Positions 17,491 to 40,908 of a stretch of DNA of 64,000 nt are shown here, one piece after another. Positions within the stretch are counted from its first letter, which is position 1; each line of letters opens with the position of its first letter. The stretch is from the NCBI GenBank assembly GCA_963730605.1, contig CAVSSM010000002.1, positions 394,416 through 458,415 on the forward strand. Direction: 5' to 3'. Source of the stretch: an uncultured Chlamydiae bacterium (GTDB lineage: Bacteria; Chlamydiota; Chlamydiia; Chlamydiales; SM23-39). The notes beneath the pieces were generated by a model. That model did no database searches, was not told the origin of the DNA, and was given only the letters and a program-made list of their open reading frames with translations. The translations under genes were made by a program, and so were the position numbers.

Positions 17491-19159
17491 CGATCAGCCC
17501 GAAGTTGTAACGGGAGTGGGTGGGATTGTCGAAACCGTTGTGCCAGAGCTGGACGCCGTAATCGAAGCGGATCGTCACATAGCGGTCGATCTGATAACGG
17601 ACGCCGGGACCGATGGAGCCTAGGCTCACAGTCCGGCTTTCGTGGACGAGGGGATTGGTATTGCCCCCATAGCCGCAATCGAAGAAGGCGAGAAAATAGA
17701 GCTCGTCGAAGGAACGGCGCGACCAACCGGCGAGTTTGCCGATGCTGAGTCGGGGCGTTTGGAGAGTGAGGTTGAAAAGAAGGGCGTTGTCGACGTTGAC
17801 GACCCGCTCTTCGAATCCCCGGACGGCGTTGTAGCCGGAAAGGGTGAATTGTTCGCTGGGAAGCAAGTTTTTTGTCGAAAGCTGACCATTGAGGTCATAG
17901 CTGAACCAGAAATGGTCGAAGCGGTAGGCGAAAGAATGGGAAAGCTTGAAATAAACATATGCTGGGCCTGCACCAGGACGGAAGACTTCAAATTTTTCCG
18001 TAGTGTTGCCGTGAGACATATTGCTTGGAGCGCCATACAGCTCGGCAACTAGAGCTACCTTATGGCAATGGCTCCTATGACCCAGGTCATAGCCGATCAT
18101 GAATTGATCGATGCTTACCAGGTTATTGAAAACCAAGACGCCCTTCGTCTTGATACGGGCGATCACCTGCTTATAATCGAATCCGAGAATGAACTCTTGG
18201 AGAAACGAAGTGTTCGTGATAATGGGGATCCGGTAGCGGCCATCGACTTGCCAGCTTTGCGATTTTTCAGTGTCTCCGTTCGGTAATTTGGGCTGCACTT
18301 GTGTATAGCCGCCATAAGCGATGAGAGTTTGCCTTGCGGGAAAAGGAACGCGGAAAAGGGCTGTCTGCGTATTGAACCGGTTCCAATTGGGAGAACAGGT
18401 GAATTGGTAGGAAAGTTCCGACTCTTCGACGATCGTTTTGCCGAAATTGATTCCGAAAAAGAAGCGGTCCCTGTCCGTCGGGTCCGTTCCCGTATTATCT
18501 GCGCCCATGTAAAAACGGTAGGGCCACCGGTCGATCGTGGCGAGCTCCAGATCTGCAGTCCCTACTTTCTTGCCTGGACGAAAGATGGCATCGGTTCTCC
18601 GGAACGGATTTTGGTTCAGCCGCGCCAAATCTTTCAACAATTGCCTCCCATCGATCGGAGATCCGCTCTTTGCGTTGATGGTTTTCTTGATTTGGCTGGG
18701 GGTATAATATTCATTTCCTCGCACTGTGATATTGCCGAGCGTCGCTTCCTCGATGACAACTCGTAAAACACCGTTCGTGACTGGTTGCCGCGGGATGCTG
18801 ACGATGACGAAGGGCTGCCCTTTTGCACAATAGAAATCGGCGATATCGGCCTTGAGTTTCCAAAGCGCGCCTTGCGTGAGCGTCCTGCCGACAAACTCTT
18901 CTTGCAGCCGTTTCAGGAAGTCCGGATTCTCAGAGAGAAGAACCACGCCGCTTGATTGCACGCCATTTAGTTCTTTAGGTTCCTTCTCGACCTTTTCAGA
19001 ACGGCCAACGATCCAAATGCCCATCAAGGGATCTGCCACCACATCCGATTGAAAAGCCCCCCTAACAGCCAGTGGGGCGCTATCGACTGCCAAGGAGTTG
19101 GGAGATCCCCAAAAAGACGAAAGGAGCGCCAAGAAACATGCCACGAATAAGTGTATCAT
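17480..19159 (-). CDS. ShlB/FhaC/HecB (TpsB, Omp85) outer-membrane transporter
   Basis: Signal peptide, POTRA-like region, DNTG, SEQFTLSGYNAVRGF motif and terminal Phe. Confidence 0.88.
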   Translation of the reverse strand: MIHLFVACFLALLSSFWGSPNSLAVDSAPLAVRGAFQSDVVADPLMGIWIVGRSEKVEKEPKELNGVQSSGVVLLSENPDFLKRLQEEFVGRTLTQGALWKLKADIADFYCAKGQPFVIVSIPRQPVTNGVLRVVIEEATLGNITVRGNEYYTPSQIKKTINAKSGSPIDGRQLLKDLARLNQNPFRRTDAIFRPGKKVGTADLELATIDRWPYRFYMGADNTGTDPTDRDRFFFGINFGKTIVEESELSYQFTCSPNWNRFNTQTALFRVPFPARQTLIAYGGYTQVQPKLPNGDTEKSQSWQVDGRYRIPIITNTSFLQEFILGFDYKQVIARIKTKGVLVFNNLVSIDQFMIGYDLGHRSHCHKVALVAELYGAPSNMSHGNTTEKFEVFRPGAGPAYVYFKLSHSFAYRFDHFWFSYDLNGQLSTKNLLPSEQFTLSGYNAVRGFEERVVNVDNALLFNLTLQTPRLSIGKLAGWSRRSFDELYFLAFFDCGYGGNTNPLVHESRTVSLGSIGPGVRYQIDRYVTIRFDYGVQLWHNGFDNPTHSRYNFGLIVSF

Positions 19160-19545
19160 TTAGAGCTGCCGGTAGTGATTGAGTGATGCATATCATAGAG
19201 GCGTTGGAGCGCAGTAGGATATGGCCAGTAAGGGCCATACTCAAATTCCTGATAGAAATCGAGAATTCGGACCGGTTCGCCGGAAATCGTCCAATGGGAA
19301 TAATAAAAACGGGAACAACCGATCGCTTTAGCGGCGGGGATTCCCTTTTCTTTCATCGGATGAGAATAAGACTTGAACTGTTCAGCAAAAGCCTTTCGGT
19401 CGACGATGATGGAAAATTCCTCAATGGATAGCCTTTCAGGAATCAACGTGCGGATCTGCTGCATCGCTTGAAGGCCTATGTTGAGATCGCTCCGAATGCT
19501 TCCGAAGAAAAGGGCGGGAGTGGCAAAAATCCAAAAAAAGCGCAT
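19156..19545 (-). CDS. Hypothetical protein coupled to the TpsB gene
   Basis: Stop overlaps the TpsB ATG (ATGA); hydrophobic N-terminus. Confidence 0.6.
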   Translation of the reverse strand: MRFFWIFATPALFFGSIRSDLNIGLQAMQQIRTLIPERLSIEEFSIIVDRKAFAEQFKSYSHPMKEKGIPAAKAIGCSRFYYSHWTISGEPVRILDFYQEFEYGPYWPYPTALQRLYDMHHSITTGSSK

Positions 19546-19624
19546 CGAGTTCACCTGAAAGAAGAGATATTGATACACAAAAAAGTTTAATCGAACAAGT
19601 AGTTATACCGAAAATTTGAAAAAT

Positions 19625-22108
19625 TTAAAAACTTTTGCCGATCTCGAGAACGCCCTGATGCGATTGATACTGCAAGCCAAACTCGCCTTGGTATCTTGCA
19701 TCGATGTAAGGCGCTTTGGAATTAGATGAGATATAGAGCATCGAAAATTCGAAAACGCCCAGGTTTTGAGCTCCCGTGAGCGTGCTTACACTGAACGACC
19801 CTGGAGACCCAACTAGAAAAGCTGTGATCTGCCCTGTATGAAATGTCTTTTGATACATGTAAGAGCCCTTCTCGCGAAAGACGAGGGAGCCCCATGAAAA
19901 TGCAGCGATTTCATGAAACCGCAGCCCTGTTTCACCTCGAAGAAAAGAACAAAACCGGCCCTCTTGGCCCATATTGAAACTGGTGGCGCCTTTTTCTTCA
20001 AACCCATTTTCCCAATTTGCCACCCAATCAAGAGACAGGAAGGGTTCGACCCCAAACCATTTGACGCTGCAAAAAGACGAGCGAAAGCCGTCATATCCAA
20101 ATTCAAAGTGGGGTGCTAACTGCCATCCATGAATATGCGATCTTGCAACGCCGCTGACTCCGAAAAAAGCAATCTGGCGTTCATTGCTGGTGAAGTAATA
20201 TCCGCCCCAAAGCCCCAAATCGAAATAGAAGTGATCTGCATTGACGGTGCCGTAAAAAGTGAGAAAACCCTGGTTGATTTTTGCATGCCCCATCCCTTGC
20301 TCGTCATGGACATATGTGAAGACATAAGCGCTTCCAGCCCCAATGGCATTATTCTCAATCCCATTATAGTCAAAGGCAGCAATCACCCCGCCCACGTTCA
20401 TGTTAAATTCAGGAGTCTGGTTTTGCGCTTTTTCCCTCGCGTACTCGCCAAACGGGCTGACCCAAACGGCGTAGGGAGATGGCCTGCAGCAAATTCTCTC
20501 ATCTGTTGTTTTCATATAAATCTTTTGGCCTGATGGTTGACTGCAAGTCTTCTTGATTTTTGGATTTTTCTGAATTTTTGTGGAGTTACTGGCTACAAGA
20601 TCGCTTTCAAGAACTGCGATCTCAGCTTGCGCTGCAGGCTGATTGTAAAATCGCCTTTGCCGCAGGTGATCGCTCATCGCTTGGCTCGAGGCAAGATATC
20701 CATTTTGCGAAGCATAAGTGCTGAAGGCATTGCGCGCAGGGGATACCGACTCCAGGGCCATCTCTTCTCCCGAAGGCAGCAGGGCAAGAGATCGGATGAC
20801 ATTGATCGGCGCATTGGCATTGAGATAGGTGGCAAGGCTCAGATTATTTCCAGTAAGGCCAGCCGTTGGCATCTGGAGAAGAAGAGCAACGCCGCCAATC
20901 GAAGCCCCGGGGATCTCTAAGAAGCTCCTCAACAGATGGATTGCATGGACATCGCTAGAATTGCCAACCACATAGGCTATTTTACCACTGAGCCCGTCGC
21001 TTTCGAAAGCAGAACTATCAACGCAAGGTGCTGGAGTCGCAGCCGTGATCGCATCCGTCTTCGATTCGACACTGTTGCTATCTCCATTCCCGGCTAGAGC
21101 CGCATTGACATCCGGGGGAGGGATCTGGGTGGATCCCGGCTCTATGGGATAAGGTGCTGGAGTCGCAGCCGTGATCGCAGCCGTCTTCGATTCGACACTG
21201 TTGCTATCTCCATTCCCGGCTAGAGCCGCATTGACATCCGGGGGAGGGATCTGGGTGGATCCCGGCTCTATGGGATAAGGTGCTGGAGTCGCAGCCGTGA
21301 TCGCATCCGTCTTCGATTCGACACTGTTGCTATCTCCATTCCCGGCTAGAGCCGCATTGACATCCGGGGGAGGGATCTGGGCGGATCCCGGCTCTATGGG
21401 ATTCGGGGCTACGGGTGTAAAGAAGCCCTTCTGCAAATCGACAATATACACATCGTCCGACTTTCCCTTCACATAAGCAGTATTAAAGTCGGAAAGGGCG
21501 ATTCCTTCAAGCTGAACGGATCCGTCTCCAAGGGAATTCGGGGTGACGGGGGCATAGGAGCCTGTCAGCAAGTTGACCGAATAGACGTTGCCATCGTTAT
21601 AACCAACTACATAAGCAAGCATTTCATTTGCGATCGCGATGTGGCCAGGTCCCGGATTGCCGGAAATGGTAGTCAGGAGAGAGTTTGCGCCTGTAGTCAA
21701 ATTGACGTTATAGACGCTATTGCTATTGTAGTCGACTACATAGGCTGTCGTATTGTTTGCCAAGGCCAAGCCAATGAGGTGAGATGCGCCAGAAACGGTC
21801 GTCACTAGCGAGTACGTGCCATTTTGCAAATTGATTGCGTAGACGCTATCAGAACTTATCGCATAAGCTAGACTGCTGTTTGCCAAGGCAATATCGTAGA
21901 CCCCTGCTACACCGCTTAAGGTCGCTACTTTAGAGCGCGCTCCCTTATCCAAATTGACCGAGTAAATCGTTGCATTGTCATCTCCCCCGCGCGGCACCTT
22001 GGAAAGGCTTGCAGAGACAAGCATGGGACATACAATCAATGAAGCAAAGCAGGAACGCGGTATCATGAAAATCTCTCTTGGAATTCCCACCATAGACCTA
22101 GTTATCAT
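19625..22108 (-). CDS. Autotransporter with beta-propeller-like repeat passenger
   Basis: Repeated AYVV..nsVY.VNL.tG blades; C-terminal ~290-aa beta-barrel-like region starting at VWVSPFGEY and ending in Phe. Confidence 0.85.
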   Translation of the reverse strand: MITRSMVGIPREIFMIPRSCFASLIVCPMLVSASLSKVPRGGDDNATIYSVNLDKGARSKVATLSGVAGVYDIALANSSLAYAISSDSVYAINLQNGTYSLVTTVSGASHLIGLALANNTTAYVVDYNSNSVYNVNLTTGANSLLTTISGNPGPGHIAIANEMLAYVVGYNDGNVYSVNLLTGSYAPVTPNSLGDGSVQLEGIALSDFNTAYVKGKSDDVYIVDLQKGFFTPVAPNPIEPGSAQIPPPDVNAALAGNGDSNSVESKTDAITAATPAPYPIEPGSTQIPPPDVNAALAGNGDSNSVESKTAAITAATPAPYPIEPGSTQIPPPDVNAALAGNGDSNSVESKTDAITAATPAPCVDSSAFESDGLSGKIAYVVGNSSDVHAIHLLRSFLEIPGASIGGVALLLQMPTAGLTGNNLSLATYLNANAPINVIRSLALLPSGEEMALESVSPARNAFSTYASQNGYLASSQAMSDHLRQRRFYNQPAAQAEIAVLESDLVASNSTKIQKNPKIKKTCSQPSGQKIYMKTTDERICCRPSPYAVWVSPFGEYAREKAQNQTPEFNMNVGGVIAAFDYNGIENNAIGAGSAYVFTYVHDEQGMGHAKINQGFLTFYGTVNADHFYFDLGLWGGYYFTSNERQIAFFGVSGVARSHIHGWQLAPHFEFGYDGFRSSFCSVKWFGVEPFLSLDWVANWENGFEEKGATSFNMGQEGRFCSFLRGETGLRFHEIAAFSWGSLVFREKGSYMYQKTFHTGQITAFLVGSPGSFSVSTLTGAQNLGVFEFSMLYISSNSKAPYIDARYQGEFGLQYQSHQGVLEIGKSF
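21025..21402. repeat. 3 x 126-bp in-frame tandem repeat (42 aa) in the autotransporter
   Basis: Units at 21025, 21151 and 21277, near-identical; peptide PIEPGS(A/T)QIPPPDVNAALAGNGDSNSVESKT(D/A)AITAATPAP. Confidence 0.95.
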
Positions 22109-22417
22109 TTTTTGTCCCCCACGCCGAATTTTCTCTATAGGGAACGACGAGCTTGCCGACCTTGCGGGGGGCCTTCGGCAATCTGCAACTACGGCTATAT
22201 TACGGCATTTTAAAAACCGACCAGCTTCGAAATATCACATAATCTAATCCTCCCCATACGAAATTCCTAGAATTCTCGAACCTTACCCTCTCTAGAAATG
22301 CCATAGAAATAACATAACTCGCTTATATAGACCATGTTACATAAATTCTTTTGATGCTTTTTATACGTTAAAGATTGGATATTGTCCAAATATCGACACA
22401 TAAGACACAATAAAGTT

Positions 22418-23173
22418 ATGAAGAATTCAACGCTAGGCATGAGCCTCTTACGCCATCTCGCTAATCAAGGGCTGAGAATTTTTTCGACAGCACAAGCTCA
22501 AGCGGCTGGTTCGGAAATAGGAATGAATCCTGATTATGTGTCAGAAGCTTTGCATCATCTGAAGAACGGAGGATGGGTTACTCGCTTAAAACGCGGAGTC
22601 TACGCTATCGCTGCATATGGGCCAGCTCCCCATGAATTTGCCATTGCAATGGCTCTTGTTACCCCCTCTGCGATTAGTCATTGGACAGCGATGCATTACC
22701 ACCATGTCACTCAACAAACTCCTAATAAAGTATTCGCCACTACTCCTCGAGGAACCTCTATTCCGAGATCTCTAGCTAATACTATGTTTCGTTTTATCCA
22801 AGTGAAGGAGGAGCATTACTTTGGCATAGAAACGGTATGGGTAGATGACATGAGGGTACAGATAACCAACCTCGAAAAAACCTTGCTTGATGGGCTTATA
22901 TCGCCTGAATACTGCGGCGATTTTAGTGAAGTATTACGTGCATTTAAAATGGGCAAGGACAAGATTCGTATTCAAGTCATTGTTGAATATGCATTAAAAC
23001 TCGATAAAGCAGTTGCAAAGCGTCTTGGCCTAATTTTAGATGGATTAGGGATCGAAAAAAAATACTTAGATCCTTTGCTAAAACTTCCAATGAAAAGTTA
23101 CTGTAAATTTGATCCTAGCGGTTCTGTTAAAGGACCTTATAATACAAAATGGAAAATCCGAGAAAACGCATGA
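22418..23173 (+). CDS. Type IV TA antitoxin, AbiEi family
   Basis: wHTH (RLKRGVY), ISHWTAMHYH and TNLEKTLLD motifs. Confidence 0.88.
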   Translation: MKNSTLGMSLLRHLANQGLRIFSTAQAQAAGSEIGMNPDYVSEALHHLKNGGWVTRLKRGVYAIAAYGPAPHEFAIAMALVTPSAISHWTAMHYHHVTQQTPNKVFATTPRGTSIPRSLANTMFRFIQVKEEHYFGIETVWVDDMRVQITNLEKTLLDGLISPEYCGDFSEVLRAFKMGKDKIRIQVIVEYALKLDKAVAKRLGLILDGLGIEKKYLDPLLKLPMKSYCKFDPSGSVKGPYNTKWKIRENA

Positions 23174-23283
23174 ATATCATACCTTTACGTAATCGCTTAG
23201 ATAGAGAGAGAAAAAAGAGCGGCATAACATTCGAAACAATTCAACAGGACTATCTCCTCTCCTGGCTCTTATCTGGATTATGA
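23170..23283 (+). pseudogene. AbiEii toxin 5' fragment truncated at the IS3 end
   Basis: ATGA-coupled to AbiEi. MNIIPLRNRL...IQQDYLLSWLLSGL matches the AbiEii N-terminal pattern and stops at the IS terminus. Confidence 0.8.
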
Positions 23284-24643
23284 GGTGGTCCCAAGTGTCA
23301 AGACCAAAAATCGCAAAAGCTAAGCTTATAACCTTGGGTTGTTAATACATCCTTCCTGGGTCTCCGAGAGCCTACCAAGAGGTCAGAGCATAATACCCTC
23401 TGACTACCGAAGGAAGGAAACCAGATCCCCCCATGGGGGGATCGCGCGCGGCGGCAATCCAATCTACCTTTCAAAATAGACCTCTGCCGGTGCTCGATAC
23501 TTAAGCCCTTGATGAGGCCGTTTCTCGTTATAAAAGTCGAAATACTTTTTCAGCCCTTGTCGAACTTCTTTCAGGCATTCATATCCTTTCGGATAGATGT
23601 CCTCATATTTCACGCTCCTCCAGAGCCTCTCGACGAATACGTTGTCCAAAGCCCTGCCCTTACCGTCCATACTGATCTTGATCCCATTATTCTCAAGCCT
23701 TCCGGTAAATTGATTGCTCGTGAACTGCACCCCTTGATCCGTGTTGAAAATCTCAGGCTTTTTCTTCAAAAGTCCTCTCTCTAAAGCCTCCATACAAAAA
23801 TCGGTATCGAGCAGATTGGAGAGTTCCCATGCGATCACATATCGGCTGAACCAGTCGATAATCGCAAAAAGATATCCAAATCCTGCGATTAGAGGGACGT
23901 AAGTTATATCTCCGGCCCAGGCCTGATTGGGATGATCAATAACAAGGTCTCTCAGTAGGTAGGGAAATTTTTTATGCTCCCTATTCGCTACGCTTAAATT
24001 CGGCTTCGGGTAAATGGCTTCCAATCCCATCACCTGCATCGCAGTTCTTACTCTTTTTGGGCCTACAAAAAAACCTTGTGCTCTCATCGCTATTGTCATC
24101 CGACGCCTCCCGTAATAGGGATGCTGAAGATATTCTTCATCGATGGCACGCATGAGCAGCAGCGTTTCCTCAGTTGGTTGTCTCGCCTCGTAATACAGCC
24201 CTGAACGATCCACTCCAAGGAGTCTACATTGTTCTCTCTGGGAAAAAACTGGATTTGCCGGTTCAATGAGGGCGCGTCGTTCATTCAGATCAAGGTCCCC
24301 AATTTTTTTTTAAGCCATTCATTTTCCATTTTCAGACGGCCGATCTGTTCAAACAGCTCAGCTTTTTCTCTTGATTCTTCACTTATCTTAGAAGCCTTTC
24401 TGGGTTTTTCAAAAATTTGAACCCCCACCTCTAGAAAATGCTTTTTCCAATCAGAGAGAGCCATAGGGTGTACGCCAAGTTCGCCAGCCAATTGAGTTGC
24501 CGTTTTTTCTCCCTTCAAAATCTCCATTACAGCCTTGAGCTTGAACTCAGGCGAATGCTTCCTTCGTATCCGGGTCATTTTGACCTCCATTTTCATGAAG
24601 GTTATAAGTTTAGACAGTGGTCGGAATTTTTGGGACCATTATA
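23281..24643 (-). mobile_element. IS3-family element (orfA 24285-24578; orfB to 23464, -1 frameshift at an A9 run)
   Basis: OrfA HTH; OrfB WAGDITY, NTDQGVQF and DNVFVERLWRSVKYE. Imperfect IRs around TGGTCCCAA...GACCA; no target duplication. Confidence 0.92.
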
Positions 24644-24744
24644 CTCAGTTTTGGATATTTTTTCTCTTTTCTGCATGACGACTTCCTCTTGAATTTTTGC
24701 CTTCAATTGTCTATCCTGTAGCTTTATTTTCAAAGGGTTCCCTA

Positions 24745-25794
24745 ATGTCTCAAAAGAAAATTTGCCTTGCTAGCGATAACTGGACACCGGCACACCCTCT
24801 TATCATCAAAGCCATCACTGAGGCAAACGAAGGCTACGCCCCTTCTTATGGTTCAGATGCCTGGACTGAAGAAGCAGGGAATCTAATTCAAAGGGCGTTC
24901 AAAAGCAAATGCAAAGTCTTTATTGTCCCTACCGGCACGGGCGCGAATATCTTTGCCCTTAGACTTTGCTCCAAAGCTTATGAGTCGATTATCTGTACGG
25001 ATATTGCTCATATTCAATATCAGGAGTCCGGTGCTGCTGAAGCTTTGGTAGGATGCAAACTTCTAACAGTGTCAAATAAAGAAGGCAAAATTACACCGGC
25101 AGAAATAGTAAAAAAGCTAAAAAGAGAAAGGGCCTTTGGAAAACACTCTACATCTCCCCGCGTTTTATCGATTACTCAACCTACCGAGGTAGGCACGGTT
25201 TATACTCTTGAAGAACTAAGAACACTCGCGAAGCTATGCAAACAAGAGAATCTTCTGCTTCACGTTGATGGAAGCCGCCTGTATAACGCAGCAGTTAGCT
25301 TAAATGCATCGCTACATGAAATTACAGAAGCCGCTCAGGTCGATATCCTATCTCTTGGAGGCACTAAAAATGGGTTGATGGGAGCAGAATCTCTGGTGAT
25401 TTTTAATCAACATTTGCAAGACGGTAGTGATCACTTACAAAAGCAAATGCTGCAATTACTTTCAAAGATGCGCTATTTGTCTGCCCAATATATTCCATTC
25501 TTTAAGAATGATTTATGGTATACACTAGCTACTCAAGCAAATCAAAAAGCGCAAGAGATTGCCTCTATCATCAAGTCTACATCTGGTCTTTCTTTGAGCT
25601 ATCCAGTCGAAACTAATCAGGTTTTCTTCACTGCACCTGCATCATGGATTCCACTTATCCAAGAGAAGATTTTCTGCTACCCTTGGGACGCTGAGAAAAA
25701 TGAAGTTCGTTTTATCTCCTCTTGGAACACTTCAGAACGAGACATCAAAGAGATACATTCCATCCTCTCTGAGGTATCTAAACATCCAAAATAA
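24745..25794 (+). CDS. ltaE: Low-specificity L-threonine aldolase
   Basis: ASDN, TGTGAN, ITQPTEVGTVY, HVDGSRLYNA and GGTKNG motifs. Confidence 0.9.
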   Translation: MSQKKICLASDNWTPAHPLIIKAITEANEGYAPSYGSDAWTEEAGNLIQRAFKSKCKVFIVPTGTGANIFALRLCSKAYESIICTDIAHIQYQESGAAEALVGCKLLTVSNKEGKITPAEIVKKLKRERAFGKHSTSPRVLSITQPTEVGTVYTLEELRTLAKLCKQENLLLHVDGSRLYNAAVSLNASLHEITEAAQVDILSLGGTKNGLMGAESLVIFNQHLQDGSDHLQKQMLQLLSKMRYLSAQYIPFFKNDLWYTLATQANQKAQEIASIIKSTSGLSLSYPVETNQVFFTAPASWIPLIQEKIFCYPWDAEKNEVRFISSWNTSERDIKEIHSILSEVSKHPK

Positions 25795-25802
25795 AGGACC
25801 CT

Positions 25803-26525
25803 ATGACAGCCCTTCTCTATCTCGAAAATGCTTATCTCAAAGAAATGGAAGCAACTATTATTGAAGTTGGAAAAGAGATCGATGGGCAACAGAGGTGGCT
25901 GCTCGTATTGGATAAAACCATTTTTTATCCTAGAGGCGGCGGTCAAGCAACTGATCAAGGATTTCTCTTCACAGATACTTGGAAAGGGAAAATAAGCCAG
26001 GTTTTGCTAAAAGAAGGTAAAGTTCTTCATTACGTTGAAGGCGATCAACCTCCGCCTGTTGGAGCATTAGTTAAAGGAACTCTAGATTGGAATAGACGCT
26101 ATCTCAATATGCGCCTTCACTCAGCGGGGCACATCGTTGATTTTGCGCTGTACCTGTTAGGTTATTCTACATCTCCATTGATGCCTTTTAAAGGCGAACA
26201 TGAGAAAAAACCAGTGATTTATTATCAAGGGACAATAGAAAAAGACTTTCAAGAAGAACTCGAGAAAAAAGCCAATGAACTCGTTGCTCAAGATCTGCCT
26301 TTCTCATTTCGTCTTGTTGATACCCAAGAACTCGAGCGTGAAACCATTTATCTCCAGCCTGGTTTGCCAACAAACAAGCCGTTAAGACTTTTAACTCTGA
26401 AAGGAGTAGGCAGCGTTGCCGATGGTGGCACTCAAGTTAAGAGCACAGCTGAGGTTGGATATATTTCTATTCTGCCCATCGAGAAAAAGGATGGCGTCAC
26501 CTTAGTTCGTTATCGAATCAACTAA
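25803..26525 (+). CDS. AlaX-type alanyl-tRNA editing protein
   Basis: TIFYPRGGGQATDQG, RLHSAGH and DGGTQV motifs. Confidence 0.88.
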   Translation: MTALLYLENAYLKEMEATIIEVGKEIDGQQRWLLVLDKTIFYPRGGGQATDQGFLFTDTWKGKISQVLLKEGKVLHYVEGDQPPPVGALVKGTLDWNRRYLNMRLHSAGHIVDFALYLLGYSTSPLMPFKGEHEKKPVIYYQGTIEKDFQEELEKKANELVAQDLPFSFRLVDTQELERETIYLQPGLPTNKPLRLLTLKGVGSVADGGTQVKSTAEVGYISILPIEKKDGVTLVRYRIN

Positions 26526-26595
26526 TTCAGAGAATGAAGCTCGATGAGCAGAGCCTCTTCTGCAAATGCATGCTTTTCACCTATTTCTTCAGTTT

Positions 26596-26717
26596 TGTAA
26601 GAAAAAGATAGCACTATTTCTTACATGAGCTGCCTACAACTCATTGATTGTAAGGCAGTTAAGAATCAATAAAAAACCGCTTGCATTTGTAAGAAAAACA
26701 TGCCAGTATTTCTTACA
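26596..26717 (+). promoter_or_regulatory. Two 30-bp operators TGTAAGAAA-N12-TTTCTTACA; the second overlaps the promoter and start codon
   Basis: Copies at 26596-26625 and 26688-26717; TTGCAT(26681)-17 nt-CAGTAT. Confidence 0.75.
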
Positions 26718-27339
26718 TGAAGAAGAATCAAAAAAAATCAAATAGCATTGATCATCAAATACTTAATGCAATAACTGCCCTTGGGCATGGCGCTGTATTT
26801 GTTCCAACGGACTTTTTGAGTCTTGGCAGTCGGCAGACTGTCGATATTGTTCTTCATCGACTCGTTCGAAAAGGAACCATTCGCCGCCTCGCAAGAGGAA
26901 TATATGATTTTCCTAAAGAACACCCTAAACTTGGAAAGCTTCAACCGTCTCCAGAAAAAATAGCAGAGGCATTAGTTGGCAGAGATTGCACTCGTATTCA
27001 ACCAACGGGCGCTTATGCAGCAAATATCCTGGGACTATCCGAACAAGTTCCTGCTAAAGTTGTATTTCTGACAGACGGGCCAAGTCGAACGGTAAAAATC
27101 GGTACAACAACCATTCAGCTTCGACGAACAACCCCAAAAATATGGCGATGGCAGGACGACTCAGCGGACTTTTAGTTCAAGCTCTCCGTGAATTAGGTAA
27201 AGAAAATGTCACTCCAGAACGACTTGAGCATTTAAAGCGGACTATTCCACTGGATGCACGACAAGAACTACTCAAGGATATTCGATTTGCGCCGGAATGG
27301 ATGCATTCCATTTTCAAGGAATTAGCCGAGGAGGTTTGA
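26717..27339 (+). CDS. DUF6088/AbiEi-like antitoxin (one A missing in a homopolymer at ~27140)
   Basis: wHTH RRLARGIY, GAYAANILGLSEQVPAK and FLTDGPSR. Adding one A joins the two ORFs as TTPKNMAMAGR. Confidence 0.85.
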
Positions 27340-27340
27340 A

Positions 27341-28408
27341 GTGAAACTTGAATTTTTAAAATTATCTTCTGACGAACGACGCCTGTACATTGAACAAGCT
27401 GCCATTCAGAGAAATATATCCCCTGTAATCATGGAAAAAGATTTCTTCGTGTGCTGGTTACTCAGTATTCTATTCGAGTCGGAGTTCGCTGAAAGCCTTG
27501 TATTCAAAGGGGGCACTTCCCTATCAAAAATATTTGGCGCAATCAATCGGTTTTCTGAAGATATAGATCTTTCGCTGTCGCCTACTTTTCTTGGACTTCC
27601 TGAAACCGCTGCAAATCGCAGTCAAGCTGACAAATGGTGGAAAAAAGCTGAAGAGGCATGTGAAATTGCTGTTCAAACTCAGATTATGCCGATGTTAGAA
27701 GCATCGACATTGGGCGTATTAGGAAAAAATGAGCAGGCAAGATTCGAGTTTTTAAAAGACCCTCAAACCAAGTCACCAGTAATTCTTTTTCACTACCCAT
27801 CATCGCTACCAACAGGGTTTGCCTATATCAAACGTTCTGTAAAACTCGAGTTCGGCTCTCTAACTGATCAGCAACCAACTGGGCGCCATACAATACGACC
27901 TTGGATTGCCGAGGTTTTCCCTGCAGCCTTTCCCGATTGGCAATGTGAAGTCATCGCTCTAGAGATCGAGCGAACTTTCTGGGAAAAGGCTACGATTCTA
28001 CATGCAGAATATCATCGACCGCTCGACAAACCAATGCGAGATAGGTTCTCCCGCCATTACGCTGATACCGCGGCACTAGCCAATCACCCTGAGGCAATCA
28101 AAGCTATTGATCAACATGACCTCCGAGATAGGGTCGTTTCATGGAAAAATCTGTTCTTTCGTGACTCATGGGCAAACTACACTCAAGCCAAACCCGGTAC
28201 TTTTCGCCTTGTTCCTAGAGCTGAAAGACTGCCTGAATTGCGACGTGATTACCAGTTGATGCGCGACATGTATCTTACTGAACCTGTAAATTTTGATGAC
28301 ATACTGAGCACCTTGTCCGAACTAGAACATCGTATCAATCTCACGACACCTCTGCTCTCTTTCAGGGCGAGCGCATCAAAAGTTAGCGGCCAGCAACACC
28401 CTGTGTAG
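27341..28408 (+). CDS. AbiEii/AbiGii nucleotidyltransferase toxin (last ~15 aa derived from ISAs1)
   Basis: EKDFFV, FKGGTSLSK, RFSEDIDL, ERTFWEK and SRHYAD motifs. Confidence 0.93.
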   Translation: MKLEFLKLSSDERRLYIEQAAIQRNISPVIMEKDFFVCWLLSILFESEFAESLVFKGGTSLSKIFGAINRFSEDIDLSLSPTFLGLPETAANRSQADKWWKKAEEACEIAVQTQIMPMLEASTLGVLGKNEQARFEFLKDPQTKSPVILFHYPSSLPTGFAYIKRSVKLEFGSLTDQQPTGRHTIRPWIAEVFPAAFPDWQCEVIALEIERTFWEKATILHAEYHRPLDKPMRDRFSRHYADTAALANHPEAIKAIDQHDLRDRVVSWKNLFFRDSWANYTQAKPGTFRLVPRAERLPELRRDYQLMRDMYLTEPVNFDDILSTLSELEHRINLTTPLLSFRASASKVSGQQHPV

Positions 28409-29573
28409 GTAGTCATTATCAAGCGCCGCCTTAAACCGTTTGGCTCTAAATTTTTGCCGCTAACAAGTTCACAGCCCTCAGATTTTCTGGAGCGTGCCCT
28501 TCTACTATCGGATTGCGATCTTCGGCGAATACCACATCCAATACCCAATGACATCTGCTCTCAATGCTCCAATGCCCTCTAATCACACGAGAGAGGGTTT
28601 CCGCTTCGGGTGGTAAACTGCTGATGTAATACTTGATTTCCTGTTGTCTTTTGCCCTCTGCCCATCTCACCGAGTCTAATTTGATGATAGACCGTAGGCC
28701 CACCCACTCGTTCTTCTGAGGCAACCAGTCCAAATCATCCGTCGCATAAATCTTTCTGAACTCCATTCGTCCATGACCTCTCTCCTCCGTTTGAAAAATG
28801 TTCAACGGTGCATATTCATCTCCGGCCTCTGCTGCCTGGTCGAAATAATTCGCCACTTCATCCTGAAGGGTGGGTTGATTTGCCTTCAGGGCTAATACAT
28901 AATCCGCTCCCATATCGCGTATCTGACTGGCGATATTTTTCTGTGTGCCTGCTGCGTCTATCGTGACGATGCTACCTTCCGGCAACACCAGTTGCTTGAG
29001 CAACTCGGGGATCGCCTTGACCTCATTGGACTTGGAATCATTGCGAAGGTGTCCCAAAACCATATGGTTTTTATCACACCAGGCAGAGACAATATGGAGG
29101 GAGTGTTCTCCTCGTTTTGACGCAGATCGGAGAGTCTTCCCATCTATATTTATCAATTCAGGAACGATGTTCTGTACCGCTTTAATCCATTCCAAGAATG
29201 CCTCTAGAAATGCGGTCGGATCAATGTGGCAAATAACCCGCCGAAAGGTGTCTGGTGATGGGATACCAGCTCGTAACTCGAGGAAGGATTGGAGCCAATC
29301 GATACGGCTTAACCCAAATTCCTCCATATCTTCCCATCCCTCAGCGCCACAAATCTTGGCCAGTAACGCAATCGTCACAATACCAACGAAGTCGTGGTCC
29401 AACCGACAGGTTCGTGGATCGGGAATCATCTCGATGTAAATGCTAATGTTGGTTGCTTGAATCATAGTGCCTCCTGAAAAAGGCGTCTATGATCGTAAAA
29501 TTTTTACTCAACAGTCAATAAAGTAGGGAGGTACGGACTAGAAAAATGCTGTTTTTTTGATGCGCTCGCCCTG
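28363..29573 (-). mobile_element. ISAs1-family element (transposase 28446-29465, C-terminus apparently damaged)
   Basis: IR CAGGGCGAGCGCATCAAAA; 9-bp target duplication GCTCTCTTT (28354-62 and 29574-82); IDGKTLR, TIDA and HWSIE motifs. Confidence 0.95.
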
Positions 29574-29582
29574 GCTCTCTTT

Positions 29583-29822
29583 AGGAGAAGCACTAATCAA
29601 GCAAAGAGGTGATGAATTAGTGCAATCCGTGACGAAAATCTTAAATGCAGGCGCTAACGTTAATGACACGTCCTGGAATGGACACCGTCCCTTGCAATTA
29701 TTAATTAAAGCCCAGATAGAATCACGTAAAAAACTTGAACTAGTCAAACGCCTAGTTAGTCTGGGAGCTGATATCCACTCTGCGGATAAAAGTGGACTAA
29801 CACCCTATCAGGTTGCTATTTC
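29583..29822 (+). pseudogene. Ankyrin-repeat segment, the former C-terminus of the AbiEii gene
   Basis: ILNAGANVN..WNGHRPLQLLI and LVKRLVSLGADIHSADKSGLTPYQVA; in frame with AbiEii after removing ISAs1. Confidence 0.85.
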
Positions 29823-30859
29823 ACGCGATGTGCGAGTTTCCGAAGCGGAAAATCGCACATGATTAATAGAGGACAAGATGCTCAAATTGCAAAGGCTCAT
29901 TTTTTGTGCGCAAGCTGAGCGCAATGCTGGCTGTATGTGCCAGTAATTTTCTCCAAAACCTAGAGCATTGATGCCATAGATCTCGAGCCCGCACTTTCTC
30001 AATGTGAAATCGCTCAGTCAATTGTCCTATGACTGTTTCAACAAGACGTCGAGTCCCCATCATCCATCGCAAAAAATCTTTCGGTCGCTCATCTTTCATA
30101 TTTTCTCGTAAAGGGGTCTCCAGATGCAATCCCTGCCCCTTAAGTTGATTCTGCAATTCAGGACGAATATATCCCTTGTCTCCCAGCAGAAGCCCCTTGA
30201 TTTTCTCGACCAGTTCAGGGCATACATCCCGTTCATCAACATTTGCTTTTGCAAATGCAGCCCCGGTTATCACCCCGGTCGAACTGATCACAACGTGTCC
30301 TCGAAAACCGTAGTAACGTTCTTTTTTGGTAGCACAATAACCATACGCGGCTTCCCCCTTAAAAATGTGACTGAAGTGAGCTCTCGCAAATTTACAAATG
30401 GGGATTGGCAGGCCGTCTATTATATGCAGGGTGTCTCCAAAAGCGTTCAAGCCAGTTGCTAAGCGCTCCTGTAATAGGCGTTTCACCACATGAAGGTTAG
30501 CAGCTTGTCTCGCAAAATTTGATCTGTCTGGAATTTTCGGAAAAAAATGAGACCAATGCCTTTTGAAATATTCCCAAATGGTTTTATCGCAATCCATCCC
30601 TAGAAATTCCCCCACGATTTCGATGGCGATTACCTCACTATCTCTCAGTCCTGGCCCAGGACCTCTTTGGCGCAGTTTTTTTCCTCTAAGAATTTTTTCC
30701 AGCTCATCGTCTATTAGACAAAAGACAGATATGATAAAGTCGTCGATCGACATGCCTTGCACTCCTGTTTGGTTTAAGCGCGAAAAGTGTGCAGAACGGC
30801 ATGTCATTTTTCAATTATTTCATGTGCGATTTTCCGCTTCGGAAACTCGCACATCGCGT
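29823..30859 (-). mobile_element. IS982-family element
   Basis: 40-bp perfect IR starting ACGCGATG; IIDGLPIP, YYGFRGH, LGDKGY and RRLVETV motifs; no target duplication. Confidence 0.93.
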
Positions 30860-30899
30860 TAATGCTTTACAGCGACCATTGGGTCAATATTTACCATTA

Positions 30900-32016
30900 T
30901 ACCGCTCGTGATTCAAAATTTTGATGCGTGAAAATTTCCCTTGACTGCACAATGGCTGCGTGAATTTTTTAACCGACTCAGAACGACAGGAACTCAAACT
31001 CCGGCACCGGGGGGACCGCGATGGGCGGGTGCGTGATCGAATAAAGGCTGTTCTCCTCTATGATGAGGGGTGGGCTCCCAAAGACATTGCCAGGGTTCTG
31101 TTGATTTCTGACGAAGCAGTTCGTCACCATGTTGACGCATATAAAACGTCGAAAAAATTGCGCCCCGAAAGCGGCGGCTCCGAGGAGAAACTATCCCAAA
31201 CGCAGTCCGAGCAACTTGAGGCTCATCTTCAAGAACACACGTACCTTTACGTCAAGGATATCGTCGCATATGTAGAAGTGACTTTCGGTATTGTCTATAC
31301 CGTCCACGGATTGAGGGATTGGCTGCGAAGACACGGATTTTCCTACAAAAAACCCGCCGTTGTACCCGGGAAAGCCAACAAAGAGCAGCAACAAAAGTGG
31401 CTCGCCGGATACGAGAAACTCAAGGCAGAACTCCTCGAGGATGAGACTATCTGCTTTATTGACGGCGTTCATCCAACGCACAATGTGCAGCCTGCTTATG
31501 GGTGGATCAAAAAAGGCGTGCGTAAAGAGATCCCAGCAAACACAGGACGTGCCAGGCTCAATCTTTCAGGGAGCATCGATGTCATCACCCACAGTGTGGT
31601 AATCCAAGAAGACGAGACTTTAAACGCAGAATCGATAATCCGGTTTTTCCAAAAGATCGAAGAATTTTACCCGAGTAAACGAAAGATCCATGTATTTTGC
31701 GATAATGCACCGTACTATCGGAATAGGGCTGTGAGGCAGTACCTAGAAACGGCAAAAGTTTGTTTGCACTTTTTACCGCCCTATAGCCCCAATCTAAACC
31801 CGATAGAACGACTGTGGAAATGGATGAAGGAGCGGGTAGTTTACAATACTTATTACGAGTACTTTGAAGACTTTAGAGGAGCGATTCTTGGTTTTTTCGC
31901 TGTATTGGCGACTGTGACCGCGGAGTCAACTTTAGGCCGGGATTTAAGAAGCCGGGTTAGGGATAAATTTAGTCCCTTTCAGGCACCTGCTGCCAAGTTT
32001 TGAATTTCCTTGGGTA
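30900..32016 (+). mobile_element. IS630-family element, copy 2 (transposase 30960-32003)
   Basis: Same 1117 bp as 4861-5977, inverted, with TA duplication. Confidence 0.95.
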
Positions 32017-32111
32017 TATATTTTCCGTTACTGGGACATTTATTTATATGATTTTTATTACTTATAATTTATAATAAATCAAATTAAACTATAAATAAAT
32101 ATGGTAAACAT

Positions 32112-34358
32112 ATGTCGATTAAAAATTTAAATTTATTACGTTACGCATCTGCAGCGCTCTTGCCAATCTTGACTCGGACAAATTCCATGGTGCCTTTGAC
32201 CATGATCACTGGAGCAGCAGTCCTGATGCAGGTGGGGGAGGTGGGGGATGCCCCTATTCTTCTTAATATTTGTCGTATAATTAGAGATCTAACAATAGGC
32301 AAGATCTCTCTTGCCTCGCCTATTTTAGGATTAGGGGCGAACTTGTTGACAGACGCTGGAATGTTCGTAGCGACAGCAATAGGAAGTATCCGCTCTCTCA
32401 AAGCCGGAATCACTGGTGATGATCAAGCTTTAGCAAGTTCAGCCCAAAGAACCGTTTTAAGCGGCATTGGAATCGCTGGATTGGCCTCAGTAGCGCACGG
32501 CCTCCAAAACCTAGTACCTGACCACAAAAGTTTTTAAAAAAATGTTTGAATAGTGTTCCATATATGCCTTTCATTTGGAGGCAGCTATGAACAAAAAATG
32601 GTCCGTTCATCTCACAGTTGAGGTGCGCAGCGAACTCGAGGACATTGTTAGAAAAGGGAAGTCATCCGCGCGGATTATCAGAAGAGCGCAAACTCTGTTA
32701 TTCGCTGATGAGAAGAAACCAGATAAAGAGATTGCCTCTTTGCTACGGTGCAGCGAGGTGAGCGTTTACAATACAAGAAAAGCCTACTGTGAACACGGGC
32801 TACAACAATCACTCAATGAAAAAGCGCGATCCGGAAGACCGGAGAAGATGGTTGGAAAGGCTAAAGCCCATTTAATCGCGCTTGCTTGCAGCGAGGCGCC
32901 CGAAGGACGCGCCTGCTGGACAATGCAGCTACTTGCGGATCGTTGCATTACGCTAGAGTTGACAGATTCCATATCGGACGAAACGGTTCGCAGAAACATT
33001 AAAAAAAACGAAATAAAGCCATGGCAAGTAAAGAGTTGGTGTGTTCCAGAAGTGGATTACGAGTATATTTGTCGGATGGAAGATGTTTTAGATTTATATG
33101 AGGAGCCGCTGAACGAAAAGAAACCCGTTGTGTGTTTTGATGAAACACCAGTCCAATTGGTAGATGATGTGTTGGCGCCAATTGCCGCAGTGCCAGGGAG
33201 AGTCAAACGCCGAGATTATGAGTACGAAAGGAATGGAACAAGCAACCTCTTTGTTTTTGTACAGCCCTTGGGAGGCTGGCGGGAAATAAAAGTCACAGAC
33301 CAGAGAACAAAAAAAGATTTTGCCGAGTGCATGAAGGATCTGGTGGACAAACATTTTCCCGAGGCAGAAAAAATTAGGGTTGTCATGGACAATTTGAATA
33401 CGCATCGACTGGCTAATCTCTACGAGACGTTTGAGCCCGAAGAAGCCAGGAGGATCATTAAGAAATTAGAGGTGCGCCATACGCCAAAACATGCAAGTTG
33501 GTTGAACATGGCAGAGATTGAAATTTCTGTTCTTGGCGGTCAGTGCCTCAAAAGGCGAATAGGCTCAAAAGAAGTTCTCGGTAGAGAGGTGGCCGCTTAT
33601 GTATCAGATAGAAATGCTAGACGGGCAAAGATCCTTTGGGGATTTGCTATCCCAGATGCGCGAGTGAAAATGAAGAGGCTCTACCCATGAAAACTTTTGT
33701 GGTCAGGTACTAGCTTTAAGTCTTGTTGCATATAGATCTCTTGATTCAGAACAACAGGACTTCATTTTAAAGCATCATTCTATAGAATCTCTTGCTGGGC
33801 AGAAGAAAAACTGCCATGCAGTCATTATCGATGGAAAGTCAAGCGAATGGGGAGCTGATAGATGATCATTCTGATCCTCTGGCAGTAGAACTCTATCGCA
33901 ATTGCGATGTACGGACATATCGGGCCGACCCTCATTCAATGGTTCCTCTTTGCGATGCTGCCGAGAAGGGAAAAAAAGCGCTTGGGGGGCCTGTGGATAT
34001 CCTCGCTATTTTTGGCCATGCGACTCAAACCCTTTTAGTACTAAAAAATTATACTTACTTTAAAGGAACAAGTTCCGAAACTGTCTGCTTAAGAGAACAC
34101 TTACAACCCGAAGCGCAGGTGATCCTCGCTGGCTGCAATACTGCGGCCGGAAACAACTCGTTAGCAGAAAAAGTTTCTCGCCACGTCAGCGGTATAGAAG
34201 TGGTTGGTTTCTCTGCTTATTTATATCCATTTTATACTACTTCCTCGTGGATCGGAAAAAAACTTAAGTTATCGGCTTACTCCATTAAAGATTCTCAAGG
34301 AAATTGGACCTTCCCGTGGACCAATATCGCTCGCACTTTTAAGAGCGCGTCGAGCTAA
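32112..34358 (+). pseudogene. Membrane protein with a C-terminal His/Cys (DUF4347/clan CD-like) domain, split by IS630
   Basis: The frame continues across the empty CTAG site (HGLQNL-ALSLVAYR...). One more frameshift near 33850 leads into ILAIFGHA...VILAGCNTA. Confidence 0.6.
32514..33710 (+). mobile_element. Second IS630-family species (transposase 32587-33690)
   Basis: Perfect IR GTACCTGACCACAAAAGTTTT; TA duplication in CTAG; CFDE, MDNLNTH and HASWLNMAEIE motifs. Confidence 0.95.
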
Positions 34359-34482
34359 ATCATGCAGGTTTTTTCCAGTTGAAAGCTGGGAGATTTATTT
34401 TGCTGTTTCGTAGCGAACATATCTTCCCATGACTTGACAAGTGTTGTTCCCGCTTCTTTTACAAGATCCTCATTGGAATATT

Positions 34483-34725
34483 TCATCGCAATGCCTCTCT
34501 AGATGACTTAAGCAACCCGCTCAGGTAGCTCCGTTCGGCTATCGCTTTCTCCGAATAGAAGCCGTGCTTAGTGTTCGCTTCGATCATGCGTTGGCGGCCT
34601 TCTTTCGTCTTTGCCCCGGTACATTTTCCGCCGTGTAAACGACATCTCCCGTTCTTCATAGCTGGTTGACGACATGGCTTATGGCCGTTTGTTCGTGCCT
34701 TAGCTCCACACTTTACGGCGAACAT
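34483..34725 (-). CDS. HGGxSTG-domain protein
   Basis: CGAKAR...PCRQPAMKNGRCRLHGGKCTGAKT...KHGFYS. Confidence 0.85.
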   Translation of the reverse strand: MFAVKCGAKARTNGHKPCRQPAMKNGRCRLHGGKCTGAKTKEGRQRMIEANTKHGFYSEKAIAERSYLSGLLKSSREALR

Positions 34726-35264
34726 GGCTTATCTCCTCGATTTTCTGGCATACCCCCGCCCCCGTAGTTGTTTACAACAGCCATCTTATCAGCGACATGA
34801 ACGACAGTTACTTTTTGTTCCCCACCACGTCGATAGCGTCCAAGAGCCTCAATGGTTTCATTGTGCAAGCGCATGTATTTAACGGCGATGTTTCCATAAG
34901 CGCTCATAAAATCTACTCGATCTGTTCTGTCAGCTCTTGAAAGACAGTCCATCCCGTTTCTGTAGAGGGCCGCTGCCTGCGAAATTAGCCGAGCTTCCAC
35001 CGCATCCTTCGGCCTCTGCTCATCCAACGTCTCAAGGGCAAGCTGCACAGATTTTACGTGATTTTGTGGGTCGACAGCGCAGGCGGTTTTAAGTGCTATG
35101 TGCTGAGCAAGGCTGCTTCTTTCCTGACCAACAGCGCTTTGTAGCGTTTGATAACAGTGTGCCATCCCCTCATCGATTCCGGCTTTACTGAGCTTGGAAT
35201 TATTCTCTTCAATCAGAGCCCTATTTTTTTCAATCTCTTCTCTATACACGGCTTCTTCTGTCAT
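34713..35264 (-). CDS. Hypothetical mobile-element protein
   Basis: 183-aa coupled ORF; PKDAVEARL and EALGRYRRGGEQKVTVVHV. Confidence 0.7.
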   Translation of the reverse strand: MTEEAVYREEIEKNRALIEENNSKLSKAGIDEGMAHCYQTLQSAVGQERSSLAQHIALKTACAVDPQNHVKSVQLALETLDEQRPKDAVEARLISQAAALYRNGMDCLSRADRTDRVDFMSAYGNIAVKYMRLHNETIEALGRYRRGGEQKVTVVHVADKMAVVNNYGGGGMPENRGDKPCSP

Positions 35265-35491
35265 TGATACCTCTCACAAAATTCCTTAGAAGCAATCCAA
35301 TCTTGCCATTCTTCCTGGCTTATTTTTCCGGATCGAAAAGCTTTTTCCATCATCTCGTCCGGGCAGCTGTTTGAATGATAAGCAGCGAACACCACGTCTT
35401 CAGGCGCAACTTGGACGCCTTCTTTCCATATATCTTCGCAAAACGCCTTCATTAAGCCATCTTCCTTGCGAGATCTTTTCTTTTTTGACAT
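35261..35491 (-). CDS. Small hypothetical protein
   Basis: 76 aa, ATGA-coupled to the next gene, GGTG RBS. Confidence 0.6.
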   Translation of the reverse strand: MSKKKRSRKEDGLMKAFCEDIWKEGVQVAPEDVVFAAYHSNSCPDEMMEKAFRSGKISQEEWQDWIASKEFCERYQ

Positions 35492-35529
35492 ACATCACCA
35501 AACATTATCATAAATCGAGTCTAGGCCAT

Positions 35530-36962
35530 TTAAAAGGCCTTTGATGAGACCCTTCCTCTTCTCTGACAAAACCGCTCCTGTAGAAGATCCGAAGCTGCAC
35601 CTTTGGTTAATCCAACTGGATGGGCAACACCAAACTTGAGCAAAGCAGCGATCTGTTTTTCTGACGCCGGATCATTTCGCCAGGGTGCATCTTTCCTTGC
35701 GAGGACAGCGGCTCGTTGATTACGCACCCAATCCTCTGCGACCCCTAGCGCGTAGCTCAAAGGCAATTCCCTTTCTGCAAGAGGCATAACCCGTTGATCA
35801 TCATTCAAAATAACACGGTAGCCGGTAGTTGAAACCTTACGCACCCAAATATCACGCCGATCTCCCACAGATAAATGCCAAGCGTCTCCAACTTGAACCC
35901 AAGCAAAAGAAGAACGGTTGAAGAAATCGATCTCTTTGATGTCTGATGTCTCAAAAGCCCCAGAGAAAACCTCAACTGGCTGCGCCTCCTCTTCAACTAA
36001 CTCTTTCGGTTTTTTCTCCCTGATTTCGAAGTTTGGCGAGACGATGCCTTCGAGAGAGTTTTCGAAGTTGCAGAGGCCCAGCCTAGACGCATCAACGAAG
36101 TCCATGACAAGGCAATTTGTCTTGCCGGGCGATACTCTAGTCCCGCGACCAACGCATTGAACATAAAGCCCTTGGCTTTTGGTTGGCCGGCACAAGAGAA
36201 TCGCGTCAATTTCTGGGCAGTCGAAGCCTTCGGTTAAGACGCCGCAGTTAGTCAATATGCGGATCTTCCCATCTGCAAAATCTTGGAGAATGCGGCGCCG
36301 ATCCTCAATGTCCATCCTGCCGTGAACTGTTGCCGACGGGATCCCAGAAGTCTTGAACGACGCGGCCAGGTCTACGGCATGTTTGACATCGGCACAGAAC
36401 GCCACAATCTTTTTCCTGTTCGATCCGTGTTGAATAAAAGAGTCGACGATCAGCTTATTTCTTCCTGGGACGTTAATTGTCCTGGCTAGCTGAGAGGCAA
36501 CAAAATCACCGGCCTGAGTCTGGACACCATTTAATGAAACCCTTGTATAAACTCGACTGCCGACAAGAGGGGATAGATAACCATTTCGAATTCCCCAGGC
36601 TATAGAGCGATTGAAGACGATCTCTTCGAAGATTGAGGACAGACCTACACCATCGCCGCGTTTAGGAGTAGCTGTCACTCCTAAGAGGAGTTTATTCGGA
36701 TCGCCTAGAAGGAACCCAAGCTCTCGGACAAGTCGCTCATAAGTGGGCGCGGCGCTGTGATGCGCCTCATCGATAATGCAAAGATCAAAACTGGCCTCCT
36801 TGAGATCGATGAGTCTGTTGTCTCTGGATGCGGATTGAATAGACGCAATGACGATTTGAGCTTCGGGCTCGTGCCTCTCTGCCTTTACAATCCCTATGTT
36901 TGCCGATCCATCCCAGATCATCCCAATCTTTTCGGCTGCTTGGGCAATCAGCTCATCGCGAT
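35530..36962 (-). pseudogene. SF2 DEAH helicase (ResIII/Irc3-like), 5'-truncated
   Basis: RDELIAQA (motif Ia), DEAHH, TATP, LTEGFD and QCVGRGTR present; Walker A lost at the IS66 junction. Confidence 0.85.
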
Positions 36963-37113
36963 ATGATATGTATCACGAAATAGTTGTAACTACCCTGAAG
37001 CGTCAGGGGAAGAAATGTCTAGATTATCTTGTGGAAGCCCTAGGCGCCTGGAAAACAGGTTCGTCGGCCCCCACCATTTTTAGCCAGCCCTGCTATACCC
37101 CCTGAACAAATAC
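36963..37113 (+). mobile_element. Probable IS66-family 3' remnant
   Basis: VVTTLKRQGKKCLDYLVEAL resembles a TnpC C-terminus; ends CCCCTGAACAAATAC. Confidence 0.6.
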
Positions 37114-37367
<254 letters not shown>

Positions 37368-37410
37368 AAAGCAGACTAGCATAGTAGGTTAGGGAGTTTT
37401 CAGGCAATAA

Positions 37411-40424: not shown

Positions 40425-40900
<476 letters not shown>

Positions 40901-40908
40901 GCAGTTTA

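Follow-up and report, generated by a model that had tools for sequence, protein, structure and literature searches.

An ankyrin tail shared by nucleotidyltransferase and Fic toxins of Chlamydiota, met first in a locus broken by insertion sequences

Toxin-antitoxin systems of the AbiE and MenAT type consist of an antitoxin gene overlapping the downstream gene of a polymerase-beta-type nucleotidyltransferase (NTase), with promoter palindromes, NTase motifs I and II and a MenT3-like fold (PMC3985639). AbiE has recently been reclassified as a type VII system (bioRxiv 10.64898/2026.01.19.700257). We describe a locus that resembles these systems in each of the above respects, in a 64,000-nucleotide stretch of an uncultured Chlamydiae bacterium (assembly GCA_963730605.1, contig CAVSSM010000002.1, positions 394,416 to 458,415), hereafter the window. 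It differs from AbiE and MenAT in an extra C-terminal ankyrin module, a DUF6088-type antitoxin and a motif IV of the form RHYAD. The ankyrin module, here called the tail, is about 120 amino acids long and is found on 11 NTase toxin lineages and on Fic toxins of the 'mobile mystery protein B' family. The toxin families themselves are known. We did not find a description of this variant, an ankyrin tail that they share and that recombines among them. To our knowledge, the triggering of AbiE-type and Fic toxin-antitoxin toxins is largely open, and chlamydial toxin-antitoxin systems have barely been studied.

In the window the tailed toxin is broken by two insertion sequences (IS), and its elements are the following.

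26596-26625 and 26688-26717, forward strand: two copies of an imperfect palindrome
26717-27339, forward strand: DUF6088/AbiEi-type antitoxin gene (Pfam DUF6088 in two pieces; PADLOC AbiEi 1e-53)
27341-28362, forward strand: AbiEii nucleotidyltransferase core, 340 codons (Pfam AbiEii, PADLOC, intact homologs)
28354-28362, no strand: left copy of the 9-bp target duplication, GCTCTCTTT
28363-29573, reverse strand: ISAs1-family insertion sequence (transposase at 28446-29465; perfect 19-nt inverted ends)
29574-29582, no strand: right copy of the target duplication, GCTCTCTTT
29583-29822, forward strand: portable ankyrin tail, of which the first two thirds remain and the last 39 codons are gone
29820-30862, reverse strand: IS982-like element that interrupts the tail (43-nt inverted ends, no target duplication)

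The first-pass annotation of this DNA had proposed that removal of an ISAs1 element flanked by a 9-bp duplication would join AbiEii in frame to an ankyrin piece, and each part of this proposal was borne out. The phase of AbiEii at the left duplication (phase 2) is the sole open frame on the right, with 0 stops in 80 codons as against 11 and 9 in the other two, and intact homologs of the joined protein exist. Instead, the present-day AbiEii frame ends at 28408, after 15 residues that the IS contributes. The core (27341-28360) matches AbiEii at 126 bits. The piece beyond the IS scores as ankyrin, as anticipated (29584-29820, Ank_4 at 23.7 bits against a cut-off of 22.7), and reaches 117 bits against a profile of the tail, compared with at most 56 bits for the other ankyrins of the genome. 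An estimate of at least 420 amino acids, cut by IS982, was right about the cut and low on length: the full fusion has 457-459 amino acids, and its last 39 codons are absent behind the IS982-like element and elsewhere in the assembly. The claim that the IS had removed only the ankyrin part likewise holds for the separation of the tail, but the second IS also took the terminal part of the tail, and the assembly shows the antitoxin with a frameshift. This frameshift is a single missing base near 27132, as shown by DNA alignment to the related loci L001 and L019. It may be an assembly error, because the EF-G gene of the same window is also split: at 40894-43004 it is divided by frameshifts into several open reading frames (ORFs), which points to indel errors in the assembly. 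The contigs compared with this region span neither of the IS junctions, and over the antitoxin frameshift they come from diverged strains only. The window copy is a decaying pseudogene, and its interest lies in the family that it revealed.

The palindrome pair is likely to be the operator of the antitoxin, a putative function transferred from AbiE (PMC3985639). The same pattern is present at 27 of 31 related loci and within this genome occurs only here; no sigma-70 promoter was called upstream of the locus. Elsewhere in the genome, three other full-length ISAs1 copies have 9-bp duplications and a fourth does not; at 28449-28450, near the end of its transposase, the window copy is short of 32 bases relative to the other genome copies and the compared contigs. 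The names ISAs1, IS982, IS630 and IS3 follow the first-pass annotation and the Pfam transposase families, and are presumed here.

The ancestral architecture suggested earlier, a DUF6088 antitoxin followed by an NTase-ankyrin fusion, is supported by intact homologs. The top homolog among the matches listed is an intact fusion of 459 amino acids, with 94% identity in the core and 91% in the tail, and intact fusion homologs range from 457 to 488 amino acids. Among the best 120 of 7991 homologs, 27 have a full tail, 3 a partial tail and 90 no detectable tail, so that the set does not uniformly end near the RINL residues of the core. The fused form is thus a common minority. At 31 near-complete genome loci the tail is complete in 13, cut or frameshifted in 5 and absent in 13, and two distant relatives with records titled as other phyla have no tail. 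In a tree of the cores, of which the root was not used and the outgroup branches are long, a single group of low support (87) holds every tailed form, with tail-less ones interleaved. The linker between toxin and tail varies in length by up to 29 residues. Three tail-less proteins (P0171, P0034 and L026) end in Pro-Leu-Pro or a near variant. The tail both opens and closes with this motif, a hint that it was lost by deletion between short repeats. No shared recombination site was seen by eye at the toxin-tail junction in 12 loci. In L006 (6028-6100), a tail-less AbiEii frame enters an antisense tRNA-Ala gene.

A search with the tail alone found the same module on three further NTase lineages, and subsequent profiles extended its range to other toxins. 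When the NTase lineages are grouped at about 40% identity, there are 11, and their best models comprise seven PADLOC AbiEii profiles and NTP_transf_8, with one lineage matching AbiEii weakly. A first profile, built from NTase tails only, matched in 60 of 400 phylum genomes and already found Fic-linked tails. A broader second profile also matched in 60 of 400, at 70 places; since only 11-29 candidates were scored per genome, all tail counts are floors. These matches lie behind NTase genes or their remnants (36), behind mobile mystery protein B of the Fic family (31), or without a toxin upstream (3). Among 70 mobile mystery protein B matches, all 32 frames of at least 296 amino acids are tailed, six of them with tails too diverged for the profile cut-off, while several shorter frames end in stubs; 20 of the remaining loci were retrieved for this comparison, with longer ones favoured. 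Tailed Fic relatives reach 137 and 151 bits against TIGR02613 (cut-off 124.4) with a helix-turn-helix (HTH) partner gene upstream. More generally, an antitoxin-type gene stands upstream in every NTase lineage for which a locus was retrieved (two groups had none) and at the intact Fic loci. An automatically built Atlas cluster of 66 members shows the same Fic-ankyrin form, with Fic in 100% and Ank in 95%; Chlamydiota is its commonest source, and it has no description. AbiEii is listed as a defence family, and Fic as the PADLOC candidate PDC-S04.

In the samples searched, the tail is hardly found outside these toxins. None of 35 shorter matches was a tailed small toxin of RelE, HicA or VapC size; these matches were fragments or restarts of the known classes. 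The tail was absent from PLSDB plasmids, GenBank phages and IMG/VR. Beyond the phylum, the single match among 151 genomes around G401 came from an ordinary multi-ankyrin protein, and the 151 genomes around G402 gave none; an Atlas search with the tail returned generic ankyrin clusters only. Some individual genes are worth recording. A lipase-like protein (L115, 704-2071) ends in a partial, decayed tail. In L142 (695-2185), a repeat protein that apparently has a signal peptide is followed, in frame past its stop, by a tail with an acidic linker; there is no toxin in the vicinity. Two Fic genes (L146, 2666-3007, and L096, 2381-3031) have in-frame internal deletions of part or most of the Fic domain and keep the tail.

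The comparison of tails with the toxins that carry them indicates that tails have been exchanged between toxins, as judged from sequence. Tails are 65-86% identical between toxins that are only 18-26% identical. The tail and toxin identities are 86% and 23% for P0124 against P0125, 83% and 26% for L054 against L093, and 65% and 18% for L101 against L110; L011 shows 75% and 26% with P0124, and 77% and 25% with P0125. In the tail tree, one well-supported clade (99/93) combines four toxin lineages. One tail is itself chimeric: before its NGHRPLQ motif P0131 matches L117 at 33/42, and after the motif it matches P0125 and L011 at 65-66/80. P0182, from the same cluster, keeps the first tail type to its end. 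The tail is also under purifying selection. Across 17 intact loci of the window's lineage, the ratio of nonsynonymous to synonymous substitution rates (dN/dS), as pairwise means that are not independent of one another, is 0.09 in the core, 0.13 in the tail and 0.05 in the last 23 codons.

Structure models agree with the division into a catalytic core and a separate tail. As the first-pass annotation had suggested modelling the fusion, an intact homolog (P0003) was predicted and gave a MenT3/TglT-like core followed by an ankyrin tail, with a mean predicted local distance difference test score (pLDDT) of 89, a predicted template-modelling score (pTM) of 0.71 and a dip at the linker. The top ten Foldseek matches of its core are MenT3/TglT and MenT4, all at probability 1.0. 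Modelled alone (pLDDT 91), the tail has helix pairs at residues 4-25, 40-63 and 78-96 and a further helix at 108-116; this end helix is Tyr-rich, with conserved Pro, Gly and Tyr. Its superposition on an ankyrin fold gives a Z score of 12.2 over 113 aligned residues with a root-mean-square deviation of 2.7, a Z score that is common for repeats. The tail is predicted to fold independently into a small, capped stack of ankyrin repeats joined through a variable linker. Catalytic motifs are retained beside it. Motifs I and II (hG[G/S]...R..DhD, as defined in PMC3985639) are kept in the window copy and in 27-28 of 28 full-length tailed homologs, motif III (FWEK) is present in 28 of 28, and motif IV is RHYAD in 26 of 28 of the window's lineage and +DxxD in most other tailed lineages. 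A complex prediction of NTase core and tail scored 0.00, with its controls not folded, and speaks neither for nor against binding.

The locus lies in a low-GC, IS-rich island at about 22.3-37.3 kb of the window (22300-37370; GC 0.45 compared with 0.51), in a host genome of 2.2 Mb in 12 contigs that is itself IS-rich. Two further features lie in the island or at its edge.

22382-23280, forward strand: second AbiE locus (AbiEi at 22382-23173; the first 37 codons of AbiEii at 23170-23280, the remainder cut by an IS)
37294-37367, reverse strand: tRNA-Phe(GAA), the island boundary

The island sits at the 3′ end of this tRNA gene and adjoins a gene for a tail-specific protease. Both of its toxin loci are broken by IS; in the second, 34 of the 37 residues of the AbiEii stub match L093, a close relative with a tail. 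L001 carries the same island without the insertions, and its DNA is 96% identical to that of the window across the operon and 92% identical across the tail. There the same two genes, taken from their Pfam matches to be threonine aldolase-like and AlaX-like, precede an intact toxin-antitoxin pair. Just outside the island, 17480-22108 holds a ShlB-type transporter gene and an autotransporter with three proline-rich repeats. This setting recurs: 16 of 29 loci of the window's lineage have tRNA-Phe or tRNA-Ala within 5 kb downstream, and five loci from two other lineages lie at the same tRNAs. The neighbours of tailed loci include a serine recombinase, transposases, other toxin-antitoxin pairs and defence-like genes, in a survey that covered 101 of 168 listed ORFs at 22 loci.

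What the tail does can be weighed against these observations. We tentatively favour, at a little under an even chance, the reading that it is a swappable partner-binding handle that likely controls when the carrier toxin acts. By analogy with AbiE and MenAT, the NTase would add nucleotides to tRNA ends, with the upstream antitoxin restraining it. The ligand of the tail would be a third protein shared by all carriers, either chlamydial or from an invader such as a phage or mobile element, rather than the toxin or antitoxin, because the tail remains nearly unchanged when it moves between unrelated enzymes. Binding of this ligand would release, stabilise or concentrate whichever toxin bears the tail. 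Toxin-antitoxin cassettes brought together in one island would recombine, crossing over at the conserved NGHRPLQ motif, and in this way spread the tails. A more ambitious form of this idea, which we consider unlikely, makes the tail a plug-in sensor or address tag used across the chlamydiae to wire the toxins of incoming toxin-antitoxin systems to one signal, such as a phage or virus protein or a host partner. If true, obligate intracellular bacteria would have assembled toxin-antitoxin parts into a modular sensor-effector system of an immune or effector kind.

Several observations weigh against a partner-binding handle. Toxins can do without the tail, which is missing from 90 of the 120 best homologs; 16 of these have apparent stubs, called by a pattern of our own, and the tail-less forms are interleaved with tailed ones on the tree. 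In the same sample there are about 36 NTase tails to more than 700 AbiEii matches, or about 5%; these matches are spread over 280 of 401 phylum genomes, with up to 7 in each and none found in 30 small genomes of family f4, which to judge by their size are probably those of the vertebrate pathogens. Several tail groups are only 25-50% alike, and the tail tree did not recover all tails as a single clade apart from ordinary ankyrins. The figure of 67 matches out of 70 behind toxins is inflated by the second profile, whose source was toxin-linked tails; the other 3 have no toxin upstream, and a lipase-like gene ends in a partial tail. Finally, a role in defence cannot be taken for granted, because E. 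coli carrying the AbiE system of S. agalactiae was not protected against 32 phages (bioRxiv 10.64898/2026.01.19.700257).

Frequent truncation and loss, the small share of tailed AbiEii genes and the chimeric tails would also fit a near-neutral passenger, derived from an ankyrin gene, spread by recombination in the common tRNA-Phe and tRNA-Ala islands, which offer the opportunity, and kept since a folded tail is less harmful than a misfolded one. We regard this as quite unlikely, given that dN/dS is low in the tail (0.13) and lower in its non-ankyrin end motif (0.05), that the tail is in frame on 12 lineages, all of them nucleotide-transferring toxins, while almost no other island gene is tailed, and that it occurs on 32 of 70 mobile mystery protein B genes, across deep branches. 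That every carrier is a nucleotide-transferring enzyme, together with the Tyr-rich end motif and the use of ankyrin repeats as immunity proteins in polymorphic toxin systems (PMC3482391), could point to an inhibitor in cis: until its displacement or cleavage, the tail would act as a second antitoxin within the toxin itself, either by folding over the enzyme or by competing with it for substrate. An autoinhibitory module was among the functions first suggested, and the presence of the tail on many NTase lineages and on Fic argues against an inhibitor tailored to one active site. With two enzyme folds, varying linkers and their own antitoxins kept, the tail is therefore unlikely to have been shaped for one active site; near-identical tails also occur on NTases 20-26% alike, and the tail is often lost while catalytic motifs stay. 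We judge such an inhibitor improbable.

A role in export or host targeting would make these toxins effectors for the host cell or for neighbouring microbes, with the tail acting like the BID domain of VbhT or the ankyrins of AnkX. BID is repeatedly fused to FicT and PezT toxins (PMC5675462), AnkX is the second Atlas look-alike of the Fic-ankyrin form, the tail ends are mildly basic, and no tail was seen outside one intracellular phylum in the samples searched. Host targeting had also been put forward in the first-pass annotation; in its conjugative-type form it finds no support in gene neighbourhoods or genome co-occurrence. No conjugation family was found among the 101 neighbouring ORFs of the 22 loci, no relaxase among the 70 tail matches and no plasmid match in PLSDB. 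The F-type component TraC, which in the host genome lies on another contig, was present in 5 of 40 genomes with a tail and in 5 of 40 without one, a comparison confined to the F-type system with untailed controls that we chose from the same main families. The toxins also appear to begin directly at the catalytic domain, which would leave no N-terminal extension for type III secretion. We consider an export or targeting role decidedly improbable, and retain the partner-binding handle as our working reading.

A search of titles and abstracts found no description of AbiEii-ankyrin or Fic-ankyrin tails of this kind, although supplementary domain tables or subscription papers could hold the fusion. 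In the portions available to us, PMC12654330 lists AbiEii/DUF6088 pairs without ankyrin, and PMC10880633 describes Waddlia systems without it. The mobile mystery protein A/B pair (TIGR02613, PDC-S04) is the family of 31 of the 70 tail matches, a Fic protein behind an HTH partner, and differs in that the TIGR02613 model has 186 positions and ends before the tail. Legionella AnkX has a Fic domain followed by ankyrin repeats, as do tailed mobile mystery B proteins, but it is a secreted effector of about 950 amino acids with a repeat region of about 450 (PMC7228754). The proteins described here have about three repeats and follow the gene of an HTH partner, and their tail is also found on NTases; the NCBIfam AnkX model scored at best 15.5 among 13 proteins, against a cut-off of 1400. 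The nearest parallel in evolutionary pattern is that of VbhT and the other BID toxins, in which one portable C-terminal domain is repeatedly attached to unrelated toxins, Fic and another family, with antitoxins kept (PMC5675462). The chlamydial tail differs from BID in being ankyrin by profile and fold, and it was not found on relaxases, is not beside a conjugation system and is not enriched in genomes that have one. Natural pairs of tailed and tail-less toxins at 85-95% identity make the question of the trigger directly testable. The tail joins BID of Bartonella as a second example, in host-associated bacteria, of one portable domain being attached again and again to such toxins.

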